NCBI GenBank assembly: GCA_032718475.1
Contig: JAUCBJ010000548.1
Span: 75,994-139,993 of the forward strand
Direction of reading: 5' to 3'
Length of the DNA: 64,000 nt
From: Nemertoderma westbladi
Taxonomy: Eukaryota > Animalia > Xenacoelomorpha
Below the pieces are notes generated by a model. The model did no database searches and was not told where the DNA came from. It saw only the letters and a list, made by a program, of their open reading frames with translations. The position numbers and the translations under genes are program-made. Shown here one piece after another: positions 1-34,900 of the stretch (position 1 is the first letter of the stretch; every line of letters begins with the position of its first letter).

Positions 1-468
1 TTGTCCCTGAATGACACAACACAAAACTAGGTGGAAACATATGTGGAAACGAATGTGGTTGAGCATCCGTAATAAATTGAGCTAATAGCATCAATGATTT
101 TATTAGGTAGCCTATTGGTTTGTATTTGTAAAACATTTCTTCAATGATTCTTCTAAGTGAGAGAGAGACTGCGACCAACCTATTTGTCTGCGGTAATTAT
201 TGACCAGGTTGCCTCCGGTGCATCGTGTTTTACTTTCACTTTAGGAACTTTCTCTGGGGATGTCAAACTAGAAGGGCGACAATGAAGAACCCAAGTGAGA
301 ATAATATTATAAAAACGTTGGGTCTGAGCCAATCAGGTGGATGAAACTAACCTCTAGGAAGCAGCACCACAAACTTGTGCCAATAATGAAAATCTAATCT
401 AATCTAAACCTAAAAGTCAAATATGAGTTCATTTATTTATGTAACTACCTTAACTATTATTATATTAC

Positions 469-633
469 CTTGAACATTCGTGACGTCATATAAAATAAAG
501 CAACCGATACAACCAAATAAAGGGTCTTGGTAACCATGGTTGCGATACCGAGTTTGTTCTTTTGGGCGAGATTACCCAGACAGCCGTGAGGTTGCATGTA
601 AGCTTTAAATGTCATCGCCAACCAACAAGCAAC
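469..633 (-). CDS. Innexin exon 2 (putative constant exon: end of cytoplasmic loop + TM3); gene continues off the left edge of the window
   Basis: Minus strand: polypyrimidine acceptor ...ttttacattttgcag|GTT, then 165 nt in phase 0 translating VACWLAMTFKAYMQPHGCLGNLAQKNKLGIATMVTKTLYLVVSVALFYMTSRMFK, then donor AAG|gtaata. The W-L...K.LYL...hydrophobic...MF pattern fits innexin CL/TM3, and it joins in frame to all three upstream exons. Not in the ORF track. Confidence 0.88.
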
Positions 634-1300
634 CTGCAAAATGTAAAAGTAAAAATTATATTAATTATTATACTCATACTGTCTGAACTCATTTCAACGT
701 ATCGTTTTAGAATTGGTGATAATTAAATAGCAAGATTAACAATTACATATCTTCATGGAGACCTATGGAGACTTAATTTAGCGAATATTTAATATATTTT
801 TTGACCCAGGAGGATCAAAAATTGAATTTTAAGATTAGGGTATGATCGATCAACACAACACCCGAATGCAGAGAAGTAGAATCTACTATTATACTACAGA
901 ACAAGTAAAACTGGTAAATTTTATAAAAGCAGATTCCGGATTTATATAAATGCATTTTAGTTTTAATCCCGAACAAATTTAAACTAGTAATAACTAACAG
1001 AGCTAAAAATATATAAAAGCAGCCGCAACTAAAAAAGTAGAAATTACTATGATTAAAACTAGAAGATTCCACTAATCTACATACGGGAGCTGATCAGATC
1101 GAAGATATGGTAAACATATTAAAAACTTTCCTAACATAAAATGCAGTTTATGCAACACAACAGACTAAACCAATAAAATCCGCTATTACACATATTTTAA
1201 TATTTATTAACGGATTTTATATCTTGGTGCCAAGACGAATATAATGTGTGCATCACAACCATGAATTGAGTTATGTCATAAAACAAATGTCTTCACATCC

Positions 1301-1512
1301 TGAGACAGGTGGGGAAACTGGACGCAAATCCCATCTCGCGAATTAATATTTTGTCTCAATGTTAACTTACCAATTTAGGGAAAGGAACAGGTTACACTGG
1401 CACGTTATTCTAACTAAAACCATAAACGAAAGTCAATAGAACAAGTTACAGTTTTATTTTTTAGAATAATCAGCTGTTATTTGCGTCGATTTTCACCCGT
1501 AAAGGATAGATT
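1301..1512. promoter_or_regulatory. Conserved non-coding module B, copy downstream of innexin exon V3
   Basis: Clearly alignable with 13744-13954: gagacagg..ggggaaactggacgcaaatc, caatttagggaaagga.caggttaca, tagaaca.gtt.cagttttatttt, aataatcagctgttatttgcgtcga. Its function is inferred. Confidence 0.5.
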
Positions 1513-2420
1513 GCGTCGAATTAATTTTTACTGAATTTTACTGAATATCACTGAAGACGTGTGTCATTAACCTACACGAAATGGCCATATAATAATGATA
1601 TTTATTTTATTTAAAATCGTTGATTAGACCCCCATGACCCCAACATATTTCTTCGCCGCGAACGATATCTTTTAGACCATGATTTGAACCATCCATAGAA
1701 ATACAACAAATGTATTCTAGACTCCCCGCGCCATAAAATATTTTAGACATTGGTGCATAATGCAATGTATTTACAAAGTGTGCAGGACATTAATAAAAGT
1801 ATAATGTATATTTATAAGCAACAAAGTATGTGCATCAATAAGCCACAAAATTACATATGTAGAGTATTACAAAATGTGGCGAATACGATTAATAGTTTAG
1901 AAAATTAGGATACGGTCTGCTAAAGTCTGATAAAGGCATGATTGTTTCACTTATTATATTATTAATTTAGTTTAAGACAAAAATATCTTAAGCAGAATGA
2001 CAAGTATATTCCTTATTGAGATTGATATTTTTATGATTTTTTATATCTCCCGAATCGCGGACCAAAAGGAAGTCCTTGAGAACGATCTGGAGATTATTCT
2101 GGATTGATTGTGATCGCCTTGAATTTAATTTATTTTTAAATCATATTAAAGATATTGATTGTAATTCTTGCTTCATTTATCACAAAACGGTGAACTGAAC
2201 AAAACTTCTTTATCACATGGTTGGCACAGAATAAACAACAACAAGTAGCAAAGCTCATAGAAAAGAAGAGAAGAACAATAAACAATAAAACCTACTACAA
2301 TATAAAGCATAAATATTATATGTAACACAAAATTAAATGTGTACAACAATAACTCAGAAGAGATGTTAGCAAGCTAAGCGGTTTAGAGGTAGTCTTAGCG
2401 AGGATGGGGTATTTAATTAC

Positions 2421-2978
2421 CTTATTGGATTTCTTTTCAATTCCAGCTTCATCATCAATAGCGTATCGCAATTCGCTAACTAATTTCTTTATCTCCGCCA
2501 TTCCCCACGACTTATACATAAGGTAGGGAAAGTAATAGCATCCGGCGCCCAAAAAGAAATAGAAAGGCACCCACTGGTACCACAGATGGTAGATCCTGGT
2601 GGGCGGAAGAACATTGTCGGGGTCACAAGGTATCACGTTGCCTTGAAGATCTAAACGACCTTGTTGGCAATGTGGTATATCTTCTGGAAGTATACCTGGG
2701 TAAGGGAGGTACTGAGTTGGTATATCGTAGGCCTCTTTCATAGTATATAGACCTTGAGTCCAACAATAGTCCTCCGAGAATTTGACCGTAAACTTTGTAA
2801 ACCCATGGCATTCTAGAATGTTGCCCAAGTATGTTCTTAGTGTTACCACAGTTCCCATCATCATCATCATTGTAAACATAACAACTCTATTGAGTTGATC
2901 GAAACCATCATCTACAGTTATACCGCCTCTACTTATAGGGATTGCTCCTTTCAACTTAGATAACTCTCCAATACCCAT
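2421..2978 (-). CDS. Innexin N-terminal (variable) exon V3: NT-TM1-EL1-TM2-CL start, 186 codons
   Basis: Innexin motifs DDGFDQLNR, C-HGF, EDYCWTQG, YHLWYQWVPF, PYLMYK. Similarity to the paralogs stops at ...SNK, followed by a canonical donor AAG|gtaatt at 2420. Confidence 0.93.
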
Positions 2979-5548
2979 ATCTTTTTATTTCGCCTAACGA
3001 TTGTCCCGGTATAATAGGCAATTTCAGTACATAAAAATAGATATTACTAGATTCTGTTTATAATATTACTCAATAAATTTTAGAAAAGTAAATATTGTAC
3101 CCCAAATACATGGTATAAAAATATATTTATACAGACACAGAGTAGCTAAAGAAGGCTACCACGACCATATGAAATACGATCCATAATAGGCAGCCATTTG
3201 TAATTATTTAATGAGAAGACGCCATTTCGCAAGCATTTAAAAAACCGCTAAGCTATGAATTATTGATTGGTGAAAAAATTTGCCGTAGTTTTGTTGCCAT
3301 CGATTTGCCATAGATTTGCCGCACGATTTGTCAACAGTTTTTCTGTCCTGTCCCATTTTACTCCATGGTTTGAACATCCTTCACTATCCAACCACTTTTC
3401 TTTACTCCTCAAACAGGTTTCCTTGACGTTGGATCAGCGCACAAGTTTCAATATTGTAAGAGGCTCGATCCAGGATCGAACCCGGCACCTCCTCGCAGTA
3501 TAGTAGGCCTGGTGGATTACCGGTACCCTTTGTGTTAAGTGCTATATGCCTACGTCGAATGCGAAATTCAACTTTCGAGTAAAGTTACTATGTCGTGAGA
3601 ACCTGGACAAAATTAAGCTCGAGTATTCAAGTAAAGTAAACTTTTCACAAATCTACGGCAAATTGTGGGCAATTTTTTGCTGCGAGGAAATTTACCCCAA
3701 ATTACATGATGTTCATTCATATATGATATGTTCCTATTAGTTGTATATACGTCGTTGTGTTCTTCCGTAAGTTGTAGAGTGACACGCAATTCATACATTC
3801 TATGTAAAAGTAAAACTAATCGCTAGGCAAATAATACGTACTTATCTTGCTAACCGAACAAATATTGCGAAATTAACGTTTAATAGACTGTCTTTCTCTA
3901 TTTGAATTTGAAACTACTTGGACTTTAACATAGCATAAAACTTAAACCTGATTTGCTTGAAATATTATTTTTCAACTTCCTGTAATTACGATTTTACGGT
4001 TATGCAGCACTACAACAATTAATCCTCGCATTTAATGTGAATTGAACCCGGCACACCAACAGTGCACCTTTATCCTTTATAAATGTTGTTCACCTTACTT
4101 AACCCCAATATCAGCTGGTAAAGTATTTGTGAGAGTAACGTAGGGCCTGGTCCCTCGCAAGAGGCCCTAATTGTTCCGATAACGGCCCTCATAATTCGAG
4201 ATCCCATGACTCCGTTATGTGTCATACGCTTTACAAATACGGTGCTGTTAAACTTGAACGATAATGGCACGCACATTCGCAGAAGACAGTCAAGTTGAAT
4301 TACCTCAAATTTGTCTCTTCATTGCCTTGTTTATACATCAGCCAGCCAACCAAATCAATTTTACTATAGTGTGTCATAGTGTATGTCCAGTCAATGTCCA
4401 ATCTACCAAATTGGTTTATGTTTCGTAGTTAATGGAATTTAACCTGGTTCACAGGTTTCGAATCAAAATATCGGCATGCAGGAGCATCGCTTATCGCTAA
4501 ATGTTCGCCCACAACTAGGCTAGCCCCGTAGAACTCTTCATGCATCTAAGGCATACGAGACACAGGTTCATCCCCAAACATGTATAAAAATTCTTAAATT
4601 TGAAATGTATGTAAGAAACAATACGGATAGAAAAAAATAGTTTTACCAAGAAAACGATCAAATAATGATAGAATCCTGCTAGAAACTTACCTCACAAACA
4701 GCAACAACTATCACGGCAAAAATTTAATTGTAGACGAGCATCAAAGTAAGCGAGCTTAGCATACTGGTACCGCTGTTTCAACCGATGTCTGTCGTTAGAG
4801 GTTGGTCTGTCGGTCTGCCTGTCTCTCTGTCTGTTGGTTGGTATGTCTGTCTGTCTGTCGGCATGTCTGTCGGCAAATGTTTGAAGTGTAATAACCCAGT
4901 CAATCTTTGATGAAATTAAAATTTGATCTTCCTGCAGATCTTCCACCAAGCCTCACGTATTTAACACAATAATTGAAAGTTCTAGAAATGTCGAAAATTC
5001 TAACAATAATCCATGACCAGTCGTGGTGGAGTTATTTAAATGAACTACAGATTGATACATTAATGCCAATGAATGGAGATTGAATGTTTTGTCTGGAATG
5101 ATAATAATCATGGACCATTTAATAACGGAAAAATTCAGTTAACTTTAGTGCACAGCCTTCTCTACGTACAATGCTTGTATAATGTATTAAGACAATTTAA
5201 TGTTATGAAGTCATATCGTAAATAAATTACTATCACTATGTAAATAAATGATTTTGGGCTATAGCAGTAAACTGTATGTCTACCATCTGATTGAATATGA
5301 ATGATAGTAACTGTCCAATTGTGCATTAGGAAAACGGCTGGATGGTCTGATTATTTTAAAGTCTCCAGAATTAGTAAATAGAAATAATGTGTAAGTCTAC
5401 TGTACTAATTGTATATAAAAAAAACAGCATGGCGAAATTCCTTATTTTAAATTGATAAACAATAGGCAGATACGTGGGCAAATATAGAGCCTAATGATGT
5501 ATATATATTATTTATAACAAATTAGAAGTAGTTAATTAGTACTAAAGA

Positions 5549-5718
5549 AACAGGTGGACTATTGACGCATGTCCCATATATGCCCACCAACAATAATAAT
5601 TATCGATTAATGGAAAAGAACAAGTTACAGTGGCAGGCTACTTGAGAACTAACAGGTTACAGGCTTATTTAACCTTGAATAAGCAGCTGTTATTTGTTTT
5701 GATTTTCCCGGCTGATGG
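5549..5718. promoter_or_regulatory. Conserved non-coding module B, diverged copy between innexin exons V2 and V3
   Basis: Same ordered motifs as the other two copies: aacaggtgga..tgacgcat, agaacaagttacagtgg, aacaggttacag, aataagcagctgttatttg...gattttcccg. Confidence 0.4.
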
Positions 5719-5838
5719 TTTAATTTTGACTTGAGTCAATAGTCCCTCCCAAGTTTTGATAGCATAGTGAAAAAAATATCACTGCAACACACAGACAAAA
5801 TGCATTGTTTACATACGTAATACATAGAGAAAATACAG

Positions 5839-5889
5839 TACATACATACATACATACATACATACATACATACATACATACATACATAC
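5839..5889. repeat. (CATA)n microsatellite
   Basis: About 12 perfect tetranucleotide units. Confidence 0.95.
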
Positions 5890-6850
5890 CGCATAAGATG
5901 TAGTAATATAGTAATAATTGTATATACAATGTAACAATATATAGTTATTGCTATTTATGTTTCAATTGAAGCAGGCCGGTTTAGTGTATTGGCAATACTT
6001 CCAGTGTCATATCCAACCAACTTACTCCACTTATAGTGATTGAGTGTTACTCATTACAGTAATAATACAGTAGAACTAATTAATTACTTTAGAACAACGT
6101 CATCTGTGAGCTGGATTTTACACAAGTTATAAAATTAACTTATTTCTGTCGTGTGGTTGAGATATACTTGCAAGTTCTTACTGGAATAATGTTATATTAT
6201 TTTTGTTGTTGTTGTGGACAAATATTATTTATTATATTATAAAATATTTATGTTATTCTAAATAACTTGATAAACAATTTATCCATCGACAAAATTACAA
6301 TAATTTTAACTTAACAGCACAGTATACTTCAGTATGTAACTACAACCATCCATCATCAAACTTTATGATATCCTCTATGATAACCATGTGTTTCAATTTC
6401 TATTCCTGAATAGCCATCAACGAGCCAACCGGGCCTATTTTTATTATTTTATTGTTTTTATCGTATGTAGGCCAATTGGAGCTTCTTCCATCGAATATCC
6501 CCCCCCCCCCCCCCTCCCCTAACTACTGAACTAGATAGCAGCGGTAAGCCAATATGGCTGCGTTAAATTTATTTTATTAATGTTGTGTTCTCAGAGACAG
6601 ATGCGTACATAGAAACGAATTGTTTTTATTGTCTCCCTATAGTCTGTAGCTATCGGGAATATTCGCTCATGGACAATCAGAAGCAATCACAACATTTCAA
6701 ATTTGCTGAACTCAGGTGCTGAAAAGAGGAAACTTAAATTAACTTTCATTTTGATTTCTTATAAGCAGGCCACTACCAAATAAGTGAAAGCAAGTATAAG
6801 AGTATGGAAAGACAGAACCAAAGTTATAATAAAAATTTATATTATTATTA

Positions 6851-7445
6851 GGCCCGGCGCACACTAGAGATGCAAGATGCACGATGCAAGATGCACGATG
6901 CAAGATGCAAAAAAGGACATCCTCCATATTCTATTTTTGCATCTCGAATTATAGAATACATGGTAGACTATAGGAGGCCGTACACTAGAGATGCAAGATG
7001 CATGATAAATTCTTTGAAATATACATTAAAATAATCAAAGTATAATATTAGCGTGTGTTGCCACCCAATATTATAATATACTGTACCTCCTCGGTGTGAC
7101 TAACACTTAAGTGACAAGCAAATATCTGTGGTCGGGATTATCTCGCAAGTGATCATATAACTTTTCCATAACGCCCTCTTGAAAATTATTCTATGTATCC
7201 AATCAATGCTCTCGTGAAATTAGGTTTGTTTGTTCTCACAACATATGCAGAAACAGTTTCAATAACTTCATCATCACTGTCATTCGTTGAAAATTAAATA
7301 ATAAGTGGATGGTCAGAAACGCAATAAATAAATAACATAAAAGCTATCAATATATAAAATAAAATACGATGCATCTTGAATCTCTAGTGTACGTCGGGAA
7401 CGATGTTTGCATCTTGCATCTTGCATCTCTAGTGTGCGGCGAGCC
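6851..7445. mobile_element. PIF/Harbinger-like MITE
   Basis: Terminal inverted repeats ggcccggcgcacactagagatgcaagatgc / gcatcttgcatctctagtgtgcggcgagcc, TTA on both flanks, and an internal second inverted pair (about 6975 / 7370). Confidence 0.7.
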
Positions 7446-8429
7446 TTAGAATAATTATATTATCAATTATTTAGAAATGTTTGTTTAAAGTTGAAAAAGA
7501 TACTGCGTATATTAGCGGGTAGGAGCCCGCATTAGAGAATAATCAAGGGGCCTTGAAATGGCAGCCCTGCGCTATGCTCTGTTTATAAAATACCCTTGTG
7601 ATCAGGGTATACCTCTGAGTCATTCATAGCGACTAACCCACTGCGAACAAACAATGAAACAAACTGCAACAAACTGATCTAATCGAATTTTAACTTCAAA
7701 CTATGTCGAAGCCCATGAAAGTTTGATATCGAGACATTTGGGAGGCATTCCTCGTTGCAATTAGACAACATTTTCGAGGTTGGACAAACAGACCCATACA
7801 CTCAGCCACTCTACCCTACACAACAACAATTAAGAGTCGCCAGCTGACCTTCATCACACAGATAACTAACTCTTAACGCTATTGCAAAGGCCTCGCCCTA
7901 ATCCCATCCAGAGAACTACGATATCACCGTCATTACCAACCGAGTTGGGAGCCACCATTGGGACGGTACAAACGTCTGGTTCCATCGCCAAGAATAAATA
8001 ATAACAATACCTTTCCAAAGAGATCGATAGCAGAGGTTGTGTAATTACAGTACACTTCTGTAACGGATCCAAGTATTGCTGCTATTCTGTGCCGCACATG
8101 CCTTATATGTATTTCTACGATCCGCAACACAATCATTTTGTGTCTGGTTTAACATCACCTCCTCCAAAAGGGCAGCTCCACCATCAAAAATACCCTGAAT
8201 TCCCCGTGATAAATGCGCTGGATTCGCTTGAAACTATCTCACTCCGCGATTCTACCCTGTGAAACGGCATGCCACCCAATAGGGTCTCATCAAAACACAT
8301 GAGAAGGCGTGCCTCTCTGCTTGACTTCACTAATAACGTTAACGTCAACCCTGCCAGGCAGCCCCACCACCCTCACGTCACCCCAACCCGAGAATATGCC
8401 GCGGAATTCGGAAGTTAACAAAACCTTCC

Positions 8430-8730
8430 AATTGGACTACACATATTCAGAAACATTGGCAACAAAATACCTCTTGGTATCATCCATGCTGTATGCGCTG
8501 GACACAAATGGTGGCACCGTAGTGCTTCATAGTTGGTCATGCTCCACAAACTCTAATGATATCACAAACGGAATCCTTCCCTTTTGCATAACACAGTGGC
8601 TATGGCATATACTAACTCATGCAAACTGTATGTTTCCGTTGAAACTCCAGAACATTCTGGAAGTTTTCCGTAACTAAGCCATGTGGCACTACACCCAAGG
8701 AAACTGAATGCCCCTTCCACCACCAACCCA
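8430..8730 (+). mobile_element. Possible highly degenerate CR1/L2-type LINE 3' fragment
   Basis: Frameshifted peptides NWTTHI..IGNKI..GII, LVMLHK and SF.P resemble the post-RT region of CR1/L2 ORF2; weak. Confidence 0.3.
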
Positions 8731-9040
8731 TAGTAGTGTGGATCTCGTAAAACTACAACTGGCCATAGTTCCAATTACAAACCTTTATATATGTATATAC
8801 GGTATATGTATGACATCCTAGTTGGTGATTGCATATCATTGGGTATTCCAAGTCACCATTTTAGAAGGCCACCTGTCTGTCACTACAACCTTTGAGGTTG
8901 TTGCCTTTGCTTGAGGGCGTCCCAATGATCCATTACAAGGGTGGTGGTGGGACAGGAGTTTCAATAGCCCCATAAGATAATTAAAAGTTAAATAATTAAT
9001 TAATTAATTTGTCTTAAGGCCCGTTCACATCCAATGGAAC

Positions 9041-9524
9041 GGTACACTGGGCGGTGTACCGCCGGGCCAGCGGTAAACCGCTGAGTGTGAACGACCCTGC
9101 GGTACACTGCGCGGTGTACCGCAGGGCCATCGGTAAACCGCTGAGTGTGAACGACCCTGCGGTACACTGCGCGGTGTACCGCAGGGCCATCGGTAAACCG
9201 CTGAGTGTGAACGACCCTGCGGTACACTGCGCGGTGTACCGCAGGGCCATCGGTAAACCGCTGAGTGTGAACGACCCTGCGGTACACTGCGCGGTGTACC
9301 GCAGGGCCATCGGTAAACCGCTGAGTGTGAACGACCCTGCGGTACACTGCGCGGTGTACCGCAGGGCCATCGGTAAACCGCTGAGTGTGAACGACCCTGC
9401 GGTACACTGCGCGGTGTACCGCAGGGCCGGCGGTAAACCGCTGAGTGTGAACGACCCTGCGGTACACTGCGCGGTGTACCGCAGGGCCATCGGTAAACCG
9501 CTGAGTGTGAACGACCCTGCGGTA
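9041..9524. repeat. 60-bp tandem repeat (~8 copies) with internal palindrome
   Basis: Unit ggtacactgcgcggtgtaccgcagggccatcggtaaaccgctgagtgtgaacgaccctgc, almost invariant. Preceded by ttaaggcccgttcacat, a Harbinger-like end also seen inverted near 48943-48962. Confidence 0.95.
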
Positions 9525-9945
9525 TTCCAACGGTGTCTGACTGGTAAATGATTTTGATTACCGCTGACTGTGAACGACTGTAATGTTGTTATTATATTTC
9601 AGAAGTAATTTGTATGAATTATGAAATTTGAAATTCCATAGTTCGAAACTGTCATTGTTTAAATCGAGTAATAGTTGATCTATGTAGTACCATGCCACCA
9701 AAATTAGTCACTAATTTCGTCGGCTTGGACGAGTCGCTTATGTAAATGTTTACTGTTCTGTTAATTATATTTATTTATATGTACGTTTATTACAATTTAT
9801 CATCCATACATTTGCACCTGTCTGTGTCACTGAGACAATAAATGACCAGCAAAATATCAAAATGGAGTCAGATTTTTGATATCGATATTTGGCGCAGCAC
9901 AATAAGTTTTTTTTCCCTATTCGTATAGACGGTCTGGTGAGCCGG

Positions 9946-10745
9946 AACAGTATATAGGTGGAGAGAGTTACTAAAGATACTCCCTAGTAGTCTTACTCAA
10001 CAGTATATAGGTGGAGAGAGTTACTAAAGATACTCCCTAGTAGTCTTACTCAACAGTATATAGGTGGAGAGAGATACTAAAGATACTCCCTAGTAGTCTT
10101 ACTCAACAGTATATAGGTGGAGAGAGATACTAAAGATACTCCCTAGTAGTCTTACTCAACAGTATATAGGTGGAGAGAGTTACTAAAGATACTCCCTAGT
10201 AGTCTTACTCAACAGTATATAGGTGGAGAAAGTTACTAAAGATACTCCCTAGTAGTCTTACTCAACAGTATATAGGTGGAGAGAGTTACTAAAGATACTC
10301 CCTAGTAGTCTTACTCAACAGTATATAGGTGGAGAAAGTTACTAAAGATACTCCCTAGTAGTCTTACTCAACAGTATATAGGTGGAGAGAGTTACTAAAG
10401 ATACTCCCTAGTAGTCTTACTCAACAGTATATAGGTGGAGAAAGTTACTAAAGATACTCCCTAGTAGTCTTACTCAACAGTATATAGGTGGAGAGAGTTA
10501 CTAAAGATACTCCCTAGTAGTCTTACTCAACAGTATATAGGTGGAGAGAGTTACTAAAGATACTCCCTAGTAGTCTTACTCAACAGTATATAGGTGGAGA
10601 GAGTTACTAAAGATACTCCCTAGTAGTCTTACTCAACAGTATATAGGTGGAGAGAGTTGCTAAAGATACTCCCTAGTAGTCTTACTCAACAGTATATAGG
10701 TGGAGAGAGTTACTAAAGATACTCCCTAGTAGTCTTACTCAACAG
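9946..10745. repeat. 53-bp tandem repeat, 15 copies
   Basis: Unit aacagtatataggtggagagagttactaaagatactccctagtagtcttactc; period 53 from 9946 to 10741. Confidence 0.95.
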
Positions 10746-11017
10746 TGTTAGTCAACTCTTTTTTACTTTAGTTTCATGGTTCTTTGTTCAATCTATTTAT
10801 GGAAGGAACTAACTTTTATGTGTACACTACAGCACTCTTTAGTCGAAGACAGTGGAACTTCCGTAGGCCTAATCAGCTTAAGTTCGGTAAGTTTTCATCA
10901 ATGAAATTCTGTCCATTCCATCGGCTATTGTTATTTTTATTACTTATTAGAAATAAATAATGCTATGTATTGTATATTACTACTGCGAATTAAAAGCTTC
11001 AACTAAAACTAATTTAC

Positions 11018-11566
11018 CTTATCGACTCTCTTTTCAATAGCAGCATCATCATCAATAACGAAACGCAACTCTTTAACAACCCTCTTAACCTCTGCCATTC
11101 CCCATGACTTTAGTATCAGGTAGGGAACATAGTATGCACCAGCTCCAAGGAAGAAATAGAAAGGTACCCACTGGTACCACAGATGGTAGATTCTAGTAGC
11201 CGCAATCACATCATTGGGGTCACAAGGAATGACGTTCCCAGAGAGATCTAAACGACCTTGTTGGCAATGAGGTACATCTTCAGGAATGATACCGGGGTAA
11301 GGGAGATACTTGGAAGGTACATCATAAGCTTCCTTGATGGTATACAGTCCTTGAGTCCAACAATAATCCTCCGAGAACTTTATAGTAAACTTGGTAAACC
11401 CGTGGCATTCTATAATGTTTCCAAGATATGATCGTACAGAAGAGACTGTTCCCATGACCATCATTAAGGAAAACATTCCGATGCGATTCAACCGACCCCA
11501 GCCATCATCTACGGCTAGTCTGGCCTTGGCGAGTGGAATCGCCTTGAAAATGTCAACGAAACTCAT
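11018..11566 (-). CDS. Innexin N-terminal (variable) exon V2, 183 codons
   Basis: ATG-initiated, with motifs EDYCWTQGLY and YHLWYQWVPFY. Ends ...RVDK then donor AAG|gtaaat at 11017; an in-frame stop follows two codons into the intron. Confidence 0.93.
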
Positions 11567-11944
11567 GATGCGTTTTCATATATTATTACTTGTAACTCGC
11601 AAAAATGTAACTAAAACAAAATTAAGATTGCTGTGGTCTACTTTGAGTTCATTGCCAGAAGACTTTAGTGTTTATTTTATGTAGTAAATTAAAGGTATTG
11701 TAAATTTAATGTTACATGTTTTTGTCGAATTTATTTGTGTTTAGTAGTGGTAAGGTGAGGAGGGCCTTTCCATGAATAATGGTAGTTTCGAGCGAACTAC
11801 AAGCAACTTCCTTAGTCAATGCTATCACTTGTTGTTAGAAACTAAACTGCCCCCATAAATTTTGCCCAGGACAATTCTCACCCGGACAATTCCCCCTTAG
11901 ATCAAAATAGCCCCCAACCCGTGAACAATTTCCCCTGAACAATA

Positions 11945-12979
11945 CAATAGGGTTGGTGCGCGAAAAAAATTGTTGGGCTAGAAATAATTTAATAAAGAGT
12001 AACAAGGTACCCTGAATCGAGTGGCGGGTGTGTTTTTTGTACGAACACGAGGGAGCGGTCGAAATCGCGGGTTTAAGTAAGCGCGGGAAGCAATCATTGA
12101 AAATCGGCTGTGATTGGCTGCTACAAATTTGACGTCACTACAACGTGCTCTTATAATTTCTTATCTTAATTTTTATGGATGGTGATTTTCGATCCATCCC
12201 AATACACATAAAATCGTAACCTTTTCACACGTGGCTTATATCATGTAAGCGGATAGTCCATAGTTTTGCGCGACTTTTGACACTATTAATTAAATTCATG
12301 ATGAGGAACATTGATAAAATGATGTTTCCAGCATTATTTCCAGCAGCAATACTGCTTTCCAAGCTTTATTGAGTTTGAGTACGGTAAGGTCTACAGATTC
12401 GATTTATAATAACACTAAACTTGTAATACATGTCAGTCGGTACTATAATAATAATTGGCAGTAGGCTACTTGTATATTAAAAATGTGTCACCGGTAACCC
12501 CAACTTATGAACTAAGCTGAAATACTCAGATAATGCAATAGGCTGATACTGAGTGCTTGGTAGGCCTACCGGTCAGGCAATCTGCCGAGTTTGCAATTAT
12601 GAATAGCCCTTCATCAATCTTCCTAATCATTAATTTTTTAGTTGTTGTGTTAAATGATACGTAATACTCTCAGCTTTCAATTGTTAAGCCACGGGGAAAC
12701 TTATTGAGATTAAATGTGTATTTAAATGGATCTAAAATCACCCTCCATAGAAAACAATATAATAAATTATCAGAGTACTGCGTAATGACGTGAAATCTGT
12801 AGCAGCCAATCACAGCCGATTTAAAAAATTGGCTTCCCGCGCCATTTCGACCGTTTCCACATGTTTTTACATAAAACACATCCCGTAACTCGATTCAGAG
12901 CACCTTGTTAGCCCTTATTCGTTTATGTTTAGCCCAATAACTTTTTGTCCAATCTTAAAATTATGTCCAACCCTATTGC
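11945..12979. mobile_element. Non-autonomous DNA element with ~200-bp imperfect terminal inverted repeats
   Basis: Ends caatagggttgg / ccaaccctattg; inner inverted matches aacaaggtaccctgaatcgagt / actcgattcagagcaccttgtt and aatcggctgtgattggctgctaca / tgtagcagccaatcacagccgatt. Confidence 0.75.
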
Positions 12980-13660
12980 CCCCCGTGACTGCATACTGCA
13001 CTAAATTTCAACCAACGCCCCAACCAGCCACCCGACAAAAATAATTACACATACAGCAAAATGCAATTATTGGTGTAATATGTAAGTTAAAAAAAATTTG
13101 ATAATAATTGTTAGCTGCATAAACTTATGTTAAAAAAAAAAGGGGGGCCTCAGTTAGCCATTCTTACAGCCAGAAGTTTATTTTTAATATTGTTGTTATT
13201 TTATAACAATCAACAACATAAATATTATCAATTAAAATATAATTAGTAAATTTAGAAAATTATAAAATAATAAAAGTAAGAAATATATTATAATAACCTA
13301 GGTAGCAATTGTCCGGGTCAATTCATTGTACTTTTTAGATGGTGAGTAATTATTATTATATTGTTGCTTTGCGTTAAATATAATAAAATATAATAAAATA
13401 TAATAGAGCTCATGAAAAGGGCAGCGATAATAACTGTCTGTAATGGCAGCAATATATAATATTTCGTATCTTTTATTTGTTGTTATCTGCTATTCAGTAT
13501 AAAGGGTTACTTACACTTCCTGTTTTTGAATGTCGCATATTACAAAACAGACTTGCATGGCACAGTTATACTTCAGTAATGCTGTTTGTTTGCATAAGAT
13601 TACAGGGCAGTCGTCGTCAGGCTTGTTTCGAACGATTATGGATACAGTAGTTAATAATGG

Positions 13661-13740
13661 CGCGGTTGTGCTTGAGATTGTCACATAAGATTTCTATTTA
13701 ACCTTTGAAACCAAATAAAAGTAGTCTCGTGATGTCGTTA
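13661..13740. promoter_or_regulatory. Non-coding element A upstream of V2 (paralog of 22357-22436 upstream of V1)
   Basis: Ungapped 54/70 identity with 22357-22426; core ctttgaaaccaaataaa. Confidence 0.45.
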
Positions 13741-13743
13741 CGT

Positions 13744-13954
13744 GAGACAGGGGGGAAACTGGACGCAAATCACATCTTGGCGATTTAATATCCCGCCTCA
13801 ATGTTAAGTTCTCAATTTAGGGAAAGGAGCAGGTTACAGTGGACGTTATTTTAACCAAAACAATAAACTAAACACAATAGAACAGGTTTCAGTTTTATTT
13901 TTGAGAATAATCAGCTGTTATTTGCGTCGAATTTCTCCCGGAGAGGGATGAATT
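13744..13954. promoter_or_regulatory. Conserved non-coding module B, copy between innexin exons V1 and V2
   Basis: Alignable over about 210 nt with 1301-1512. Contains a CAGCTG E-box, two ACARGTTWCAG-like motifs and ~20-nt imperfect inverted ends. Confidence 0.5.
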
Positions 13955-14400
13955 GTAAAGTACTTTGCAACAAGTATTTATGTAGTTTTATTCCAAAATT
14001 GTAACAGTACGAAATGATTGTATATATATTATAAGTGATATAAACTGCACAAATTAAATTAGTTGCTGTATTAATAAATGTAAAAATTACATAAATTATG
14101 TTAAAAAAAGTTAGCTTATATTTATTATGGCGTTTGGAGCCATGTTAATAATATAGCTACTGGTTATTAATAGCTATACCCCGCCTACCGGTAGGTAATG
14201 CAGTAGGCCTATCCGGCTGACAGGTAAATACCACCTATTGTTTACGTGGTAACCAATGAAGGCGTTAAGTAATGTCCACTAAGGGGACATTACTTAACTG
14301 AATTATACCAATACAATACTAAATGTACAGGACAATACAATGCTGTAAAATCCTCAAAAGTTGTAAAGTGCTACATAACAACTCGCTGTTAATACTAACG
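13955..14400. repeat. Dispersed repeat (inverted copy at ~48110-48546)
   Basis: Long near-identical inverted match, e.g. tagctactggttattaatagctataccccgcctaccggtaggtaatgcagtaggcctat vs ataggcctactgcattacctaccggtaggcggggtatagctattaataaccagtagcta. Confidence 0.85.
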
Positions 14401-15425
14401 GCATTGAGTAATGTTACAATTTTTGAATAAAGATCATTATATTTATAAATTTAATTTTTTCGCTGTAACAGTGGCCTAGTATCCGAATTTGTAAAGCATA
14501 CTTATTATTACTCGTCGTGGCTGTAAAATAATGTGCTAAATTTTACTACAATTGGATGTCTATAGTCAGTCACGGACATTAATGTTGTCATTTTAAAACA
14601 GAAAGAAATTATTAGGCACTTGCGACATTGCATTATCCTGCTATTTTAGGGCAGTTATGTAGCTTTTCTGTGTCACCTCTCACTTAGGGTCATTCACATA
14701 ACTCTTAGAACGGCTGTACTGATAAATATATTATTAACTGGGTGTGATATATTGGAATATGTCATCATATTGTGGCAAACTGACCACATACCATTCCCAA
14801 ACCTACCGACTGACCCAAACAATAAATATAAACCATTATATAGTCCCCTACAAATTAAGTTTATTTCATCTCCCGCACTCACTCACATTTCACTTCTAAA
14901 TATGTAAAATAATACAAGTAGTATGATATAGATAAGTCGGTAGTTAAAGTAGTCAAATACGCTTTGACCAGTGACAGTTCAAGCTCCACTTTGAAAATAT
15001 TAATAACAATAAAAAATAAGACGATTATTACAACGTATCTACATCTATGCTGAATTGTTACTGTTAATTGCTGGTTAAGTAAATTATGTATGCCTTTTTA
15101 TTGTCCATTATATTATTCATTATTGTTCATTATATTACATCGCATAGGTGAGACCTCATGTTTACTATTTGTAATGTCATTCGAAAATATTTTAAGGAAT
15201 GGAGCAAACTTCAGCACAATAGAATTCCATACATTGCTCTAATTTCAGCAATTTGAAAAATATAATCTGATAAAGTCTCTAGTTATCGAATAGTTGTTGT
15301 ACCTTTGTGCTTGTACCAAAAATGAAAGAGATAAGTAATTCATCTGCTTTATATTCAGAGCCCGAAATGGAAAATTTAATTATTTGAAAAATGCGAATTA
15401 AAAATTCAAACTAAAACTAATTTAC

Positions 15426-15974
15426 CTTATCAACTCTCTTGTCAACAGCCTCATCATCATCTATGGCGAATCGCAGTTCTGCAACTACCTTTTTAACCTC
15501 TGCCATTCCCCATGACTTTAGTATCAGGTAGGGAACATAGTATGCACCAGCTCCTAGAAAGAAATAAAAAGGCACCCACTGGTACCACAGATGGTAGACT
15601 CTAGTAGCCGCAATCACATCATTGGGGTCACAAGGAATGACGTTCCCGTAGAGATCTAAACGACCTTGTTGGCAATGAGGTACATCTTCAGGAATGATAC
15701 CGGGGTAAGGGAGATATTGGGAAGGTATATCATAAGCTTCCTTGATGGTATACAGTCCTTGAGTCCAACAATAATCCTCCGAGAACTGTATTGTAAACTT
15801 TTCAAATCCATGGCATTCTAGAATGTTTCCGAGATACGATCGTACAGAAGCGACTGTTCCCATGACCATCATTAAGGAAAACATTCCGATGCGATTCAAC
15901 CGGTCCCAACCATCATCTATAGATAGTTGACCCTTGGCCAGAGGGATCGCCTTGAAAATGTCAACAAAACTCAT
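15426..15974 (-). CDS. Innexin N-terminal (variable) exon V1, 183 codons
   Basis: Same motifs as V2 (19 aa differences in 183). Ends ...RVDK then donor AAG|gtaaat at 15425. Confidence 0.93.
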
Positions 15975-16901
15975 CTTATCTGAGTTGTCACATATACCAG
16001 GTATCGTATATTGTAATTAAAACAACAGTAACTTTTACTGGCAGGTTTCTTTTATTGGGTAAATCATTATTTATCATATGTATTTGTGTTTGGTAAAACG
16101 TGAACTGATCGTGTCGTGTTAAGGAGGCGCAATAATAATGGATACTGGTCGCTTGGTGTGGACCACAAACGATTTATGACAATCATTGAAGTCATTATCA
16201 ATGGTGTTTGTAGTTGTTGCAATGAGATATCAAGTGCGTTTAGGTAATAATCACGATTCAGCAACAGTCGCGATTTGGTAATTCATTTGTGATTCGGCAA
16301 AAAAAGTCCACAGTTACGAAAACCAGTAAAATAAAAATTTCTAAAATATATTCTCACAGCAGAATAATCATTGTTCCACAGAGATAGAAAGACTGTTATC
16401 ATTGATAATAGATACACAATTATCATCAGAGAAAGCTATTCTATATTGACCTGTATTGTTATGTAAATGGATCAAATCTGATTAAAGAATATGGGTAGGT
16501 TTGTTGATTCCATTCAAGTCGTATACAAAGCTGGTCCCGAAACACCAATTCATTTAAACTAAACAGCACTACAGGAGTTCGATTGTATGTAATAATAATT
16601 GTGTATCAGATTAATTATTATTATTATTAATATTTTCATAACAACATGCGCACTAAGCGCTATAGTTTAAATTGCCCGGTTCAGAATACTCAACATAATC
16701 ATGAACATACAGTAGGTTATAATGTATGCATAGGTACCGAAAAAAGAAACCGTGAAAACCCAATCAATTTCAATTTATAACTAATATTATTATACCATAC
16801 CAGACTTTTATAATAACACTTAATATCTAATAGGCTTACATTAATAATTATGGAATTAATAAATGAAAACTGCGGTAGTAGCTCTAATTTATATAATACT
16901 T

Positions 16902-18869: not shown

Positions 18870-19860
18870 TTAACATCCGGTTGCAAATAATGGTCTGTTT
18901 AGCACTCCGGTTTTCCATACCTCCGCTGGGATTTCATCTAATCCACTCGCTTTATTATTGGACATGCTTTTAATGCTTCTTTGGAGTTCGGCAGGTGTGA
19001 AGTCCCCTGTTTCTATAGGTAGTGTCTTGTCATATATTTTCCTTGTAGGGCTGACCTCGATGTTTGGTGGCTGCCCAAGCAAGTTGCTGAAGTGATTTTT
19101 CCACTTCCCAACACGTTCTTCAGGACTATCGGCTTTGAGGCGCCCCTTTGCACAACTTTTACGACCAGATACCTCATTTACAGTTTGCCAGGTAAGTCTC
19201 GATTGTTGCTGTATGTGAGCAGTTGTAATTGCTTCAGTTTTATCCTGTATGTACTTTTCCTGGCTGATGTTGTAGGCCAATTTAAGATCGTCCTTAGCTT
19301 TCTCAACCTTATTAATGTTTTCAGTTGTTGGTTGTTCGGTTTTAACTTTGTAGGCTATCTTAAGATCTTCTCTCTTACAAGTAACCTCAGAGTTTTGCCA
19401 TGGCACATACTGTTTTCGTTTGGGTTTCTGGGGGATATGCCTCTTAGCTGATTCCTTGTGGGCTGTTATTGTATTCTGGTATATTGAATCGGTGGATTGG
19501 TCTTCATCCATTGACTGAAGTGCTTCAAAGCGGTTTTGAACTTCTACTGTATAAGCATCCTTTACAGCATTGTCAGTTCTGAGTTTCTCCCAGTCATAGT
19601 TGATTTGCTTGCTTGTCCTGGGTTTGCTGGCTCTCAAACTGAGTCTTATCTCTGCAGTCACAATTCTGTGGTCCGAACCAATTAGGTTGAACGAGCTGTA
19701 TGCCTCGCAGTTGACCATGCTGTTTCTCCACTTTTTGTTTATAAGGATGTAATCCCGTTGTGCTTTGGTTCCATTAGGGTATTGAAAGGTCCATAGCTTC
19801 CCCTTACTCTTTTCGAATGTGTTGTTTGTTGGTATCAATTCACATTCTTCCATTAGGTCT
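18870..19860 (-). pseudogene. RTE-type endonuclease C-terminus/linker (upstream frame of the same LINE)
   Basis: KLWTFQYPNGTKAQRDYILINKKWRNS...SDHRIV...NRFEAL...WKNHFSNLL. The first ~55 aa of the listed ORF come from an unrelated repeat. Confidence 0.8.
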
Positions 19861-19884
19861 AAAAGTAAGTAAGTACCCATTTCT

Positions 19885-20030
19885 GTTAGAACTGGTGTTA
19901 TAGGTAAGACATAAATAAGCTCTATAAAACACTTCATAAAGATAAATTTAAAAAAATAAAAAAACTCCATATATAAAATTCCAATAAAAAGTCGACCGAA
20001 AAGTGAAATCCTGGTATTCTTCACATGGGC
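19885..20030. repeat. Half copy of a small TIR element family (CCCATGTGAAGAATACCAGG end)
   Basis: Inverted match to 45093-45220; the same end also occurs at ~28820-28878. Confidence 0.7.
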
Positions 20031-20199
20031 GGGAATTATAATTATTGTTAGGTAACCTCTTGTCTATCATAACGCACAATTCAATTCAATTCTTTTATAT
20101 TGGTCTAAAACTTCAGTCAGCAAGCTGAGCTGAAGGCAGTTTAAAACAACTGATAATTATAAGACCAACGTCTACGCTACCCTAAGTACAACCAAACAA

Positions 20200-26298: not shown

Positions 26299-27600
26299 TT
26301 AAAAATGTTGTGCCGGCTTGTCGACAAAATTGCGCCGCCACAACTCCCTATCTCCCATGACATTTGCTAGATCATCCGCATCTTCAAGGCCAGCGTCCTT
26401 TAAGATGCTTCTCAAGAAAGTCATGGGCTGTCCACCATGCTTATTCACTCCATGACGCTGCCAAAGCACAAGATTATGCACTGGCTGGTCCTCACGGCGA
26501 AAGCAATGTCCTGCAAAGCGGAGGCGACTTTGTTCTAGTGTCAAGCTTGGGGAACCAATGAGACACCTCCAATGTTATATAGTGTCTGGTTGGAGATGTG
26601 TGCATTGTACTTGACACAATGAACCCGGCGTAGCATTCTCGTGAATGTGCCATCCAGAGATTTGGTGTCCTCAGCAGTTAGAGCCCAGCATGGACTCCCA
26701 TAGAAGAAGTACTGGCACTACTGCTTCTCTAAATTATCGGACCTTAAGTTTCCGATTAATTATCTGTGACTTCCAAATCCTGGAAAACCTATTCAAGGCT
26801 GCCCATGCCTTTCCCTTACGTATTCGAAGGTCATCGCCTGACTTCCGGATCCATGATCCCAGGTAACAGAAGTCGTCCACATGCTCAGGCATACCATCCT
26901 TTGAGCTTATGCTCATCCGGTCAGAGACTTGCTGAGGATTTTCAAAGTTAACTGTCAAAATTTTGGTCTTTTTGGAGTGAATAAAAAGACCAAAACTAGA
27001 AGCAGCATGTTCTAATGAGCTGAGGAGCCATTGGGCTCCCTCTAGTGATTCTGAGAGTACTCCTAAGTCATCAGCAAAGTCTAGATCACTTAGGTACTTG
27101 GCAGGATTTCCTCGACTTCTGGAGCCAGTAAGTTGAGTTACCATCACCCCATCATCATTATGATGATCTAAGGAGATGCGTAGAACATAGTCAACCACAA
27201 TTACGAACAAGAATGGCGCAAGTGCGTCTCCTTGGAGGACGCCCCATAACACTTCAAATGGTTCTGTGTCACCGTCAACAGTAGACACAAATGTTGTCGA
27301 ACCATCGTACACTGATCTGATTGCTGCAATAATTTCATCAGGAATCCCATATAATGAAAGTATGCTGAACATACGTGATCGAGAGATTGAATCAAAAGCC
27401 TTGAAGAAGTCAACAAAGATAACAGCAAGATGCCTGTCTTTCTTTTTTGATAACTCTTCAATTATCCTTCTAAGTGCCAAAATGGACTCCATGGTCCCAC
27501 GACCTTTGCGGAACCCATTCTGATTTCCACGGAGCAGTCTCCCAATGGGATCCATAATGCGATTTAATATAATTCTATTGTATAGCTTTGCAGCAATCGA
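26299..27600 (-). mobile_element. 5'-truncated RTE-like LINE, RT and C-terminus with frameshifts
   Basis: QNGFRKGRGT, FVDFFKAFDS, GVLQGDALAP, DLDFADD, FCYLGSW, RLRFAGHCFRR. Confidence 0.88.
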
Positions 27601-31974: not shown

Positions 31975-34900
31975 GATTTGCGGGACAGCTGTGGGTTACT
32001 GTGGTGGGGTGAAGCTATTTTATGGACAGCTGTGGGTTCCTGTGGTGGGGTGAAGCTATTTTATGGACAGCTGTGGGTTCCTGTGGTGGTGTGAAGAGAT
32101 TTGCGGGACAGCTGTGGGTTCCTGTGGTGGTGTGAAGAGATTTGCGGGACAGCTGTGGGTTACTGTTGTGGTGTGAAGAGATTTGCGGGACAGCTGTGGG
32201 TTCCTGTGGTGGGGTGAAGCTATTTTATGGACAGCTGTGGGTTCCTGTGGTGGTGTAAAGATATTTGCGGGACAGCTGTGGGTTCCTGTGGTGGGGTGAA
32301 GCTATTTTATGGACAGCTGTGGGTTCCTGTGGTGGGGTGAAGCTATTTTATGGACAGCTGTGGGTTCCTGTGGTGGTGTGAAGAGATTTGCGGGACAGCT
32401 GTGGGTTCCTGTGGTGGTGTGAAGAGATTTGCGGGACAGCTGTGGGTTACTGTTGTGGTGTGAAGAGATTTGCGGGACAGCTGTGGGTTCCTGTGGTGGG
32501 GTGAAGCTATTTTATGGACAGCTGTGGGTTCCTGTGGTGGTGTGAAGAGATTTGCGGGACAGCTGTGGGTTCCTGTGGTGGGGTGAAGCTATTTTATGGA
32601 CAGCTGTGGGTTCCTGTGGTGGTGTGAAGAGATTTGCGGGACAGCTGTGGGTTCCTGTGGTGGTGTGAAGAGATTTGCGGGACAGCTGTGGGTTCCTGTG
32701 GTGGTGTGAAGATATTTCCGGGACAGCTGTGGGTTCCTGTGGTGGTGTGAAGAGATTTGCGGGACAGCTGTGGGTTCCTGTGGTGGTGTGAACCGGGACA
32801 GCTGTGGGTTCCTGTGGTGGGGTGAAGCTATTTTATGGACAGCTGTGGGTTCCTGTGGTGGTGTGAAGAGATTTGCGGGACAGCTGTGGGTTCCTGTGGT
32901 GGTGTGAAGAGATTTGCGGGACAGCTGTGGGTTCATGTGGTGGTGTGAAGATATTTCCGGGACAGCTGTGGGTTCCTGTGGTGGTGTGAAGAGATTTGCG
33001 GGACAGCTGTGGGTTCTTGTGGTGGTGTGAAGAGATTTGCGGGACAGCTGTGGGTTCCTGTGGTGGTGTGAAGAGATTTGCGGGACAGCTGTGGGTTCCT
33101 GTGGTGGTGTGAAGATATTTCCGGGACAGCTGCGGGTTACTGTGGTGGTGTGAAGAGATTTGCGGGGCAGCTGTGGGTTACTGTTGTGGTGTGAAGAGAT
33201 TTGCGGGACAGCTGTGGGTTCCTGTGGTGGGGTGAAGCTATTTTATGGACAGCTGTGGGTTCCTGTGGTGGTGTGAAGAGATTTGCGGGACAGCTGTGGG
33301 TTCCTGTGGTGGTGTGAAGAGATTTGCGGGACAGCTGTGGGTTCCTGTGGTGGTGTGAAGATATTTCCGGGACAGCTGTGGGTTCCTGTGGTGGTGTGAA
33401 GAGATTTGCGGGACAGCTGTGGGTTCCTGTGGTGGTGTGAAGAGATTTGCGGGACAGCTGTGGGTTCTTGTGGTGGTGTGAACCGGGACAGCTATGGGTT
33501 CCTGTTGTGGTGTGCACCGGAACAGCTGTGGGTTCCTGTGGTGGAGTGAACCGGGACGGCTGTGGGTTGCTGTAGTGGTGTAAAGAGATTTGCGGGACAG
33601 CTGCGGGTTACTGTGGTGGTGTGAAGAGATTTGCGGGACAGCTGTGGGTTCCTGTGGTGGTGTGAAGAGATTCGCGGGACAGCATGGGTTACTGTGGTGG
33701 TGTGAACCGGGACAGCTGTGGGTTCCTGTGGTGGTGTGAACCGGGACAGCTGTGGGTTCTGTTGTGGTGTGAACCGGGACAGCTGTGGGTTCTTGTGGTG
33801 GTGTGAACCGGGACAGCTATGGGTTCCTGTTGTGGTGTGAACCGGGACAGCTGTGGGTTCCTGTGGTGGTATGAACCGGGACGGCTGTGGGTTGCTGTAG
33901 TGGTATGAACCGGGACGGCTGTGGGTTGCTGTAGTGGTGTAAAGATATTTGCGGGACAGCTGCGGGTTACTGTGGTGGTGTGAAAAGATTTCCGGGACAG
34001 CTGTGGGTTCCAGAGGTGGTATGAAGAGATTCGCGGGACAGCTGTGGGTTCCTGTGGTGGTGTGAAAAGATTTTCGGGACAGCTGTGGGTTCCTGAGGTG
34101 GTATGAAGAGATTCGCGGGACAGCTGTGGGTTCTTGTGGTGGTGTGAAGAGATTTGCGGACAGCTGTGGGTTCCTGTGGTGGTGTGAAGAGATTTGCGGG
34201 ACAGCTGTGGGTTCCTGTGGTGGTGTGAACCGGGACAGCTGTGGGTTCTGTTGTGGTGTGAACCGGGACAGCTGTGGGTTCTTGTGGTGGTGTGAACCGG
34301 GACAGCTATGGGTTCCTGTTGTGGTGTGAACCGGGACAGCTGTGGGTTCCTGTGGTGGTGTGAACCGGGACGGCTGTGGGTTGTTGCTGTGGTGGTGTAA
34401 AGAGATTTGCGGACAGCTGTGGGTTACTGTTGTGGTGTGAACCGGGACAGCTGTGGGTTCTTGTGGTGGTGTGAACCGGGACAGCATGGGTTCCTGTTGT
34501 GGTGTGAACCGGGACAGCTGTGGGTTCTTGTGGTGGTGTGAACCGGGAAAGCTATGGGTTCCTGTTGTGGTGTGAACCGGGACAGCTGTGGGTTCTTGTG
34601 GTGGTGTAAACCGGGACAGCTGTGAGTTCCTGTGGTGGTGTGAACTGGGACGGCTGTGGGTTCCTGTGGTGGTGTAAACCGGGACGGCTGTGGGTTGCTG
34701 TAGTGGTGTAAAGAGATTTGCGGGACAGCTGCGGATTACTGTGGTGGTATGAAGAGATTTGCGGGACAGCTGTGGGTTCCTGTGGTGGTGTGAAAAGATC
34801 TCCGGGACAGCTGTGGGTTCCTGAGGTGGTATGAAGAGATTCGCGGGACAGCTGTGGGTTTCTGTGGTGGTGGTGTGAACCGGGACAGCTGTGGGTTACT

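Follow-up and report, generated by a model that had tools for sequence, protein, structure and literature searches.

The 64,000-nucleotide stretch analysed here (hereafter the window; contig JAUCBJ010000548.1 of the Nemertoderma westbladi assembly GCA_032718475.1, forward-strand positions 75,994 to 139,993) carries part of an innexin gene on its minus strand. There are three tandem first coding exons, termed V1, V2 and V3, and one shared exon downstream of all of them, termed exon 2. V3 is spliced to exon 2, V2 is likely to be, and V1 possibly is as well. We consider it probable that this single gene supplies two to three gap-junction subunits that dock alike and gate differently.

Each V exon starts with an ATG, is free of stop codons and ends in phase 0 at AAG/GTAA. 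These exons encode the N-terminus (NT), the first transmembrane helix (TM1), the first extracellular loop (EL1), TM2 and the start of the cytoplasmic loop (Table 1). Exon 2 is bounded by a pyrimidine-rich CAG acceptor and by another AAG/GTAA donor, which leads out of the window, and we place the remainder of the gene, comprising the second extracellular loop (EL2), TM4 and the C-terminal tail, to the left of the window. The would-be introns to exon 2 measure 14792 nucleotides for V1, 10384 for V2 and 1787 for V3, and the junction of a V exon with exon 2 aligns to homologues without a gap. V1 and V2 are 90.7% identical at the nucleotide level, and their flanks are unrelated beyond about 34 nucleotides of intron. 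If left unspliced, V1 and V2 would each meet a stop two codons beyond the donor; annotators would likely overlook both exons.

There is no second copy of exon 2 in the window by tblastn or blastn, and a search of the window with nhmmer gives no fourth V exon at E<=1. When ten full-length ctenophore innexins (by tblastn) and a hidden Markov model (HMM) built from them are used as queries, only four significant segments appear in the 64 kb, namely V1, V2 and V3 (E 1e-67 to 1e-71) and exon 2 (E 2e-11), and the next best match has an E value of 2.5. Exon 2 is only 27-33% identical to the queries and is found all the same, and therefore this search is able to see a diverged second half. A first-pass annotation of this DNA had described three intact paralogous exons with equivalent donors, the lack of any second-half innexin exon between them, and a single exon 2 in frame with each. 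Its coordinates are all exact, its reading frames are confirmed, and the searches and the gap-free junction bear out the rest. The locus shares with clusters of the UGT1 or protocadherin type a tandem row of paralogous single first exons that keep one reading frame and have no constant exons between them.

The V exons each score 69-80 bits against the Pfam Innexin family (PF00876; cut-off 25), over profile positions 1 to 135-138 of 333. Exon 2 alone has no Pfam match and carries a hydrophobic stretch; it is recognized by the ctenophore innexin HMM (E 2e-11). In a 42-row alignment (V3 numbering), C57 and C72 of EL1 are invariant and P151 of TM2 is nearly so, and all three residues are present in V1, V2 and V3. 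An AlphaFold model of V3 has helices at residues 4-12, 25-51 and 134-157, with a mean predicted local distance difference test score (pLDDT) of 67.5 and a predicted template modelling score (pTM) of 0.50. A Foldseek search with this model places INX-6 entries on top, at weak E values of 0.14-0.57. There is no match at E<=0.1 in a PDB sequence search, and a VIA-align search yields generic helical pairs only (best Z 6.3). Comparison of exon 2 with longer proteins (four candidates) found nothing, and a search confined to proteins returned three half-length relatives of V3, none of them a close V-like exon and none with this layout.

The best score, 221 bits, is to ctenophore proteins. In trees of 37 and 28 rows, V1, V2 and V3 form one clade (support 100/100) in which V1 and V2 are sisters (100/99). 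Proteins named from Mnemiopsis and Bolinopsis surround this clade, and 11 distant innexins fall outside the group (100/100). The nearest family is weakly placed (81/87 and 86/90, with a long-branch warning), close to the family of Mnemiopsis ACHWQZ_G001460. Thus, the gene is an innexin, likely of the ctenophore kind, as had been proposed, and judged by these relatives the DNA would likely come from a ctenophore. The single clade supports an origin of the three exons by duplication within their own lineage, again in agreement with the first reading of this DNA. The clade joins none of INXA, INXB and INXD. Descent from the ctenophore INXB-C-D cluster was considered and is rejected, because the V exons are each other's closest relatives. 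Orthology to the insect protein ShakB, itself absent from the tree, appears unlikely.

Splicing to the shared exon

There are six public sequencing runs, none of them recorded as RNA, and four of these (X1, X2, X4 and X5) were compared. X1 is possibly the source run, and X2 is a DNA run whose sample and study differ from those of X1. X4 is labelled 'DNA?'. Its cover leads us to infer that it is RNA, since it covers 14 of the 30 bins of positions 1-8900 and has zero depth in intron bins that both X1 and X2 cover.

For V1, V2 and V3 alike, contigs of X2 run across both the start and the donor, with at least 31 letters on each side. V1, V2 and V3 are real separate loci, because an independent DNA sample holds each of them with its own flanks. 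At 95% likeness, X2 covers 14485-15069 barely or not at all, possibly reflecting a length polymorphism or a diverged allele between V1 and V2.

An X4 contig skips the 1787 nucleotides of positions 634-2420 exactly at GT..AG, and this joint is absent from X1, X2 and X5; X5 has no cover on V3. The junction between V3 and exon 2 is thereby seen directly. The same contig stops 25 nucleotides into exon 2. A second X4 contig, of 2164 nucleotides, represents the constant part; it starts 5 nucleotides before exon 2, lies on positions 469-635 with its letters 4-170 only, and exits at the exon 2 donor. The assembler breaks contigs in this manner only where another sequence joins, and therefore the break in the V3 contig indicates a further partner for exon 2.

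Several features of the X4 contigs point to V2 as this partner. The last five letters are common to V1, V2 and V3, and V3 departs from the other two at the sixth. There is a 727-nucleotide contig on positions 11016-11719 that ends at the donor with 23 unmatched letters plus GT, an overhang of 25 nucleotides, and this contig includes the V2 leader and matches V2 at 48 of 51 diagnostic sites. The assembly graph was simulated under five scenarios with k=31, a value that was taken from 31-letter words and that fits the 30-letter overlap. When V2 and V3 are both joined to exon 2, the simulation returns 25/25/5, which is the observed geometry. V3 alone gives no break, V3 together with its unspliced intron gives 28/2, and all three V exons joined give 24/6 and 12 breaks for V2. 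V1 with V3 also gives 25/5, but the observed contig is that of V2. The geometry of these contigs makes it very probable that V2 is spliced to exon 2.

V1 has no X4 cover at 95% likeness where X2 does cover it, and the unbroken V2 contig with its 25-nucleotide overhang also fits a graph without V1; neither is a sign that V1 is silent, since contigs drop rare variants and this is one run. Contig depths in X4 (647 for the constant part, 262 for V3 and 176 for V2) cannot be read as expression levels. There is no V-to-V or leader splice among the assembled contigs, and the V2 and V3 contigs have no unmatched letters at their 5' ends. Both run unbroken 5' of the ATG, for 153 and 167 nucleotides respectively, without foreign letters there, in keeping with separate first exons. 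Two variable exons are thus joined to one constant exon, V3 as directly observed and V2 as deduced from contig geometry. The proposal of one gene with alternative V exons on a shared exon is upheld to this extent, and its extension to at least three subunits is unproven because it depends on splicing of V1.

Upstream regions and genomic surroundings

The choice among V exons is likely made by promoter. There is no significant motif shared by the regions upstream of the V exons. An 11-nucleotide match is common to the upstream regions of V1 and V2 (about 16069-16095 and 11720-11746, minus strand), just ahead of the start of the V2 contig. It is possibly a promoter remnant, and its score of 27 is near background.

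Spliced-leader trans-splicing may also take part at the V exons. Acceptor-like sites occur on the minus strand at 3145-3163 before V3 and at 11610-11628 before V2, the latter 44 nucleotides ahead of the ATG, and there is no such site within 220 nucleotides of the ATG of V1. Sites of this kind occur here once per 352 nucleotides. Among 20 ctenophore innexin loci, 15 (L002-L012, L014, L015, L017 and L018) begin, within the first 60 nucleotides, with an AT-rich leader ending in TTGAG, compared with 2 of 743 control windows, and PMC8527503 describes TTGAG as a spliced-leader end.

Table 1. Features of the innexin locus and the independent DNA contigs that bear on them
Feature	Position	Strand	Description
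V1, variable first coding exon	15426..15974	-	183 codons; NT-TM1-EL1-TM2-start of cytoplasmic loop; phase-0 donor
V2, variable first coding exon	11018..11566	-	183 codons; very probably spliced to exon 2
V3, variable first coding exon	2421..2978	-	186 codons; spliced to exon 2
Exon 2, shared constant exon	469..633	-	55 codons; end of cytoplasmic loop and predicted TM3
Intron between V3 and exon 2	634..2420	-	1787 nt, GT..AG; joint in X4, none in X1, X2, X5
V2 5' leader	11567..11719	-	153 nt; continuous with V2 in X4 contig; acceptor-like site at 11610
V3 5' leader	2979..3145	-	167 nt; continuous with V3 in X4 contig, whose start is exactly the acceptor-like site
V1 codons 62-133 (EL1)	15576..15791	-	likely gene-conversion tract; 0 synonymous differences from V2
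V2 codons 62-133 (EL1)	11168..11383	-	partner tract; X4 allele with V1 letters at 11191, 11240, 11241
X2 contigs at V1	15166-15522, 15873-16572		
X2 contigs at V2	10780-11114, 11465-12039		
X2 contigs at V3	1808-2592, 2650-3326		

There are two tandem arrays in the V2 intron, at 9040-9524 (60-nucleotide unit, 8.1 copies) and 9946-10746 (53-nucleotide unit, 15.1 copies). Both consist of 98% matches, and the first is partly self-complementary. High-copy interspersed elements, some of them in inverted pairs, lie between the V exons at 1301-1505, 13743-13946, 13954-14387 and 11964-12946. Upstream of the innexin locus, a 10-kb tandem array of 34-41-nucleotide units occupies 31981-41985. Two long single open reading frames follow, one at 42966-44636 (minus strand) for a BART-domain protein (PF11527, E 7.5e-34) and one at 49109-50608 (plus strand) for a family-17 glycosyltransferase (PF04724, E 8.6e-22) with an EGF-like motif. 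Reverse transcriptase matches are located at 26737-27600 (minus strand, E 1.3e-22) and 57474-58001 (E 0.001), and further retroelement pieces, judged by eye, at 18873-20063 (minus strand) and 54240-59850 (plus strand).

Divergence among the variable exons and its possible function

The ratio of nonsynonymous to synonymous divergence (dN/dS) is 0.054/0.284 = 0.19 between V1 and V2, and about 0.18/1.4, or about 0.13, between either of these and V3. With domain borders taken from the AlphaFold model of V3, V2 and V3 are identical at 6 of 21 positions in the N-terminus, 15 of 27 in TM1, 68 of 82 in EL1, 20 of 24 in TM2 and 18 of 29 in the loop. They differ at 27 of 48 positions in the N-terminus and TM1 combined, as opposed to 14 of 82 in EL1 (Fisher p=5e-6). 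Between any two V exons, identity in TM2 and in EL1 is 83-100%. On these predicted borders, the differences gather in three places: the N-terminus, TM1 and the beginning of the cytoplasmic loop. The first-pass annotation had suggested that the V exons provide different docking halves. This suggestion is weakened, because EL2 belongs to the shared part and, of the loops, EL1 has changed least among the V exons (68/82 identical for V2/V3, 75/82 for V1/V2).

The distribution of differences was compared across 13 pairs, among them ctenophore paralogs. The N-terminus of ctenophore innexins is usually among the most conserved regions, with 19 of 19 positions identical in three close pairs and 16 of 19 between two families. 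The pair P0002/P0149 is close to V2/V3 in overall identity (118/181 versus 128/182), and it is identical at 16 of 19 N-terminal positions and at 8 of 27 positions of the EL1 cysteine loop; for P0005/P0006 these values are 14/19 and 13/27. For V2/V3 they are 7/20 and 21/27, and the EL1 cysteine loop is identical at 21-26 of 27 positions among all V exons. In two more distant pairs, P0010/P0014 and P0013/P0183, both regions have diverged. Thus, in these alignments the pattern of V2/V3 is the reverse of that in comparable ctenophore paralog pairs.

There is no synonymous difference between V1 and V2 in codons 62-133, a run of 64 of the 153 eligible codons (permutation p=7e-5), and there are such differences at 21 of 110 codons outside this tract. 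Of the 36 such codons in 87-133, 12 are different in V3, which indicates that synonymous sites there are free to change. The tract still holds five amino-acid differences. In addition, the X4 allele of V2 has V1 letters at three of its four coding differences, all within the tract, and one of these lies 26 nucleotides from a V2-specific letter, which is too near for an assembly chimera. EL1 of V1 and V2 has likely been homogenized by gene conversion. V3 also shares identical runs of 31 and 26 nucleotides with V1 (aligned nucleotides 377-407 and 298-323; 26 and 26 with V2) despite a dS near 1.4, possibly reflecting an older conversion or strong constraint.

If the favoured model is correct, each V exon would be driven by a separate promoter, and the 5'-most donor of the transcript would splice over any downstream V exons to exon 2, with the constant part running on through EL2, TM4 and the C-terminal tail. 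Cell types would choose either V3 or V1/V2. The near-uniform EL1 and the shared EL2 would keep hemichannels compatible, such that isoforms could dock and co-assemble, and the unlike N-terminal helices and TM1 would set voltage dependence and permeability. In the INX-6 structure, as described in PMC6084585, the funnel of the pore is built by the N-terminal helix, and TM1 lines the pore; the E1 helix makes the pore narrower, and the E2 hairpins seal the junction. By analogy, V2/V3 pairs could rectify as do pairs of ShakB(L) and ShakB(N+16), variants that PMC5412853 reports to differ only up to TM2 and to rectify in heterotypic pairs. The N-terminus of UNC-7b is likewise described as conferring rectification (PMC7455501).

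A number of points weigh against this model. All RNA-type evidence comes from the contigs of one run, and contigs cannot show starts, strand or level. The V2 junction is deduced from geometry, the letters of the V2 overhang not having been seen. There is no V1 junction in these data, and because V1/V2 and exon 2 were mapped apart, on either side of positions 8901-10779, the table of joints could not have shown one. No X2 contig spans two V exons, and thus their order rests on the assembly of the window. The upstream DNA of V1 and V2 has no clearly alignable stretch (best local score 27, compared with 21-22 for other pairs). The structural model that supplies the domain borders is modest. V2 and V3 do differ in EL1, at 14 of 82 positions, and the E1 helix narrows the pore of INX-6, so that an effect on docking is possible. 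Finally, exchange of the ShakB N-terminus alone is reported to have transferred gating incompletely (PMC5412853, PMC7455501).

Perhaps the gene produces two isoforms only, V1 being an unused relic that arose recently by copying of V2 and exchanges sequence with it by gene conversion. The missing V1 junction and the lack of an acceptor-like site near its ATG, where V2 and V3 both have one, agree with this explanation, and conversion with V2 could hold the frame of V1 open without selection. However, V1 retains its ATG, frame, cysteines and donor despite the 21 of 110 synonymous codon differences outside the tract, and it is present in the independent sample X2. Counts polarized on V3 also give no clear decay on the V1 branch, with 5 synonymous and 7 amino-acid changes as against 8 and 7 for V2. 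A relic therefore seems somewhat unlikely. Far more severe would be the view that the V exons are three truncated genes or pseudogenes, or an artefact of assembly. A stop lies just past the donors of V1 and V2, and repeats and retroelement pieces abound in the region, but the observed V3 junction, the V2 contig geometry, dN/dS values of about 0.13-0.19 and the distinct flanks in X2 render this highly improbable. Another proposal, which we regard as quite improbable, is that a long precursor is made from one upstream promoter and a spliced leader is added at the acceptor before the chosen V exon. The frequency of TTGAG leader ends at ctenophore innexin loci, the start of the V3 contig at an acceptor-like site and the position of the V2 site are all in its favour. 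On the other hand, the X4 contigs carry no leader letters, the V2 contig extends 109 nucleotides past its acceptor-like site, and leader addition is also compatible with separate promoters. Work in nematodes leads to the expectation that an upstream cis donor would capture such acceptors, and here neither V-to-V join would keep the reading frame.

The remaining explanations concern the proteins. The V exons might merely place interchangeable subunits in different cells through separate promoters, with the protein differences due to drift. The unrelated upstream flanks and the similarity of TM2 and EL1 are consistent with such a role, but the N-terminus that is normally conserved in ctenophore innexins has diverged strongly between V2 and V3, and we find a purely regulatory function unlikely. 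Alternatively, the V exons might provide different outer surfaces, such that coupling occurs only between matching isoforms. EL1 does lie within the variable exon, with its 14 differences between V2 and V3, and other ctenophore innexins swap EL1 segments between isoforms. However, EL2, which contains the sealing hairpins of INX-6 (PMC6084585), is in the shared part, the EL1 cysteine loop, which varies most between ctenophore paralogs, is identical at 21-26 of 27 positions here, and V1 and V2 look homogenized across EL1. A docking code is improbable, and one gene with tandem first exons whose products differ in gating remains the reading we favour.

Relation to known systems

Variable first exons on a constant part are already known from UGT1, GCNT2 and the clustered protocadherins, and their use in an innexin is known from ShakB. 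As described in PMC1885805, the former have large tandem paralogous first exons of near-equal length and the same frame, shared constant exons, lineage-specific duplication and conversion between neighbours, all of which resemble the V array. The array differs in having three exons only, in encoding an ion channel rather than an enzyme or adhesion molecule, and in that no common upstream motif was found. The sDscam genes of chelicerates are reportedly another variable-first-exon cluster.

Among innexins, Drosophila shaking-B (Lethal, Neural and Neural+16) also places N-terminal variants on an identical C-terminal part from one locus, and in the giant-fibre system the heterotypic junctions between these variants rectify (PMC5412853, PMC7455501). 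The border between variable and constant parts appears one helix further on in the gene described here than in the published account of shaking-B. We infer that the two arose independently, as the V exons group by sequence with ctenophore innexins. The ten isoforms of C. elegans unc-7 likewise use alternative first exons to alter the N-terminus, and one of them rectifies, but PMC7455501 describes them as differing only before TM1 and at two loop residues, and they are not duplicated half-channel exons. The ctenophore INXB-C-D cluster shares with the V array the tandem duplication of innexin sequence, and is described as consisting of whole separate genes (PMC9949713). That survey kept one isoform per gene, and 'exon', 'intron' and 'splic' do not occur in its text or supplement, figures aside.

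There are hints of exon choice in other ctenophore innexins. Two isoforms of Mnemiopsis ACHWQZ_G001800 (KAL5271279.1 and KAL5271280.1; P0149 and P0150) have 10 differences, all in residues 51-87 of 402, within EL1. This gene is INXB, as judged by eye against the probe in the supplement of PMC9949713. Genomic fragments (P0029, P0030, P0033-P0035 and P0040) carry either version with similar borders, and Bolinopsis P0151 is of the second type. The two versions likely represent a conserved pair of mutually exclusive exons. The family of P0002 (P0002, P0166, P0168, P0169 and P0027) has alternative N-terminal and mid-EL1 segments on a near-identical C-terminal half. P0166 differs at 11 positions, 8 of them within 77-102, P0168 combines an unlike stretch of 19 N-terminal residues with a body that is nearly identical, and the fragment P0027 contains two EL1-like segments in a row. 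These segments look like mutually exclusive duplicated exons, although the proteins may be from different species.

There is no report of such an innexin layout for ctenophores in the open-access literature we searched. The new elements are its occurrence in a ctenophore-type gene, a variable exon that spans half a channel, the reversed pattern of divergence and the apparent conversion across EL1. Much of the standard transmitter toolkit is missing from ctenophores, and gap junctions are considered a major carrier of their signalling (PMC9949713). Their innexin repertoire has so far been counted by genes, with one isoform each, and here one gene can supply subunits that are about 70% alike over the first half. 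The locus offers a natural experiment on the N-terminus and gating, with two or three channels that share the same C-terminal half and near-identical outer loops and have different pore entrances. Recurrence of this design in insects and ctenophores would point to the N-terminal half as the part in which innexins usually diversify. We propose only tentatively that a one-gene kit for asymmetric synapses evolved in ctenophores independently of insects, wherein gene conversion and selection kept EL1 uniform so that every isoform docks, the pore helix diverged and mixed pairs rectify. If true, then together with the swapped segments in other ctenophore innexins, exon choice would constitute a hidden, phylum-wide diversity of gap junctions that gene counts miss.

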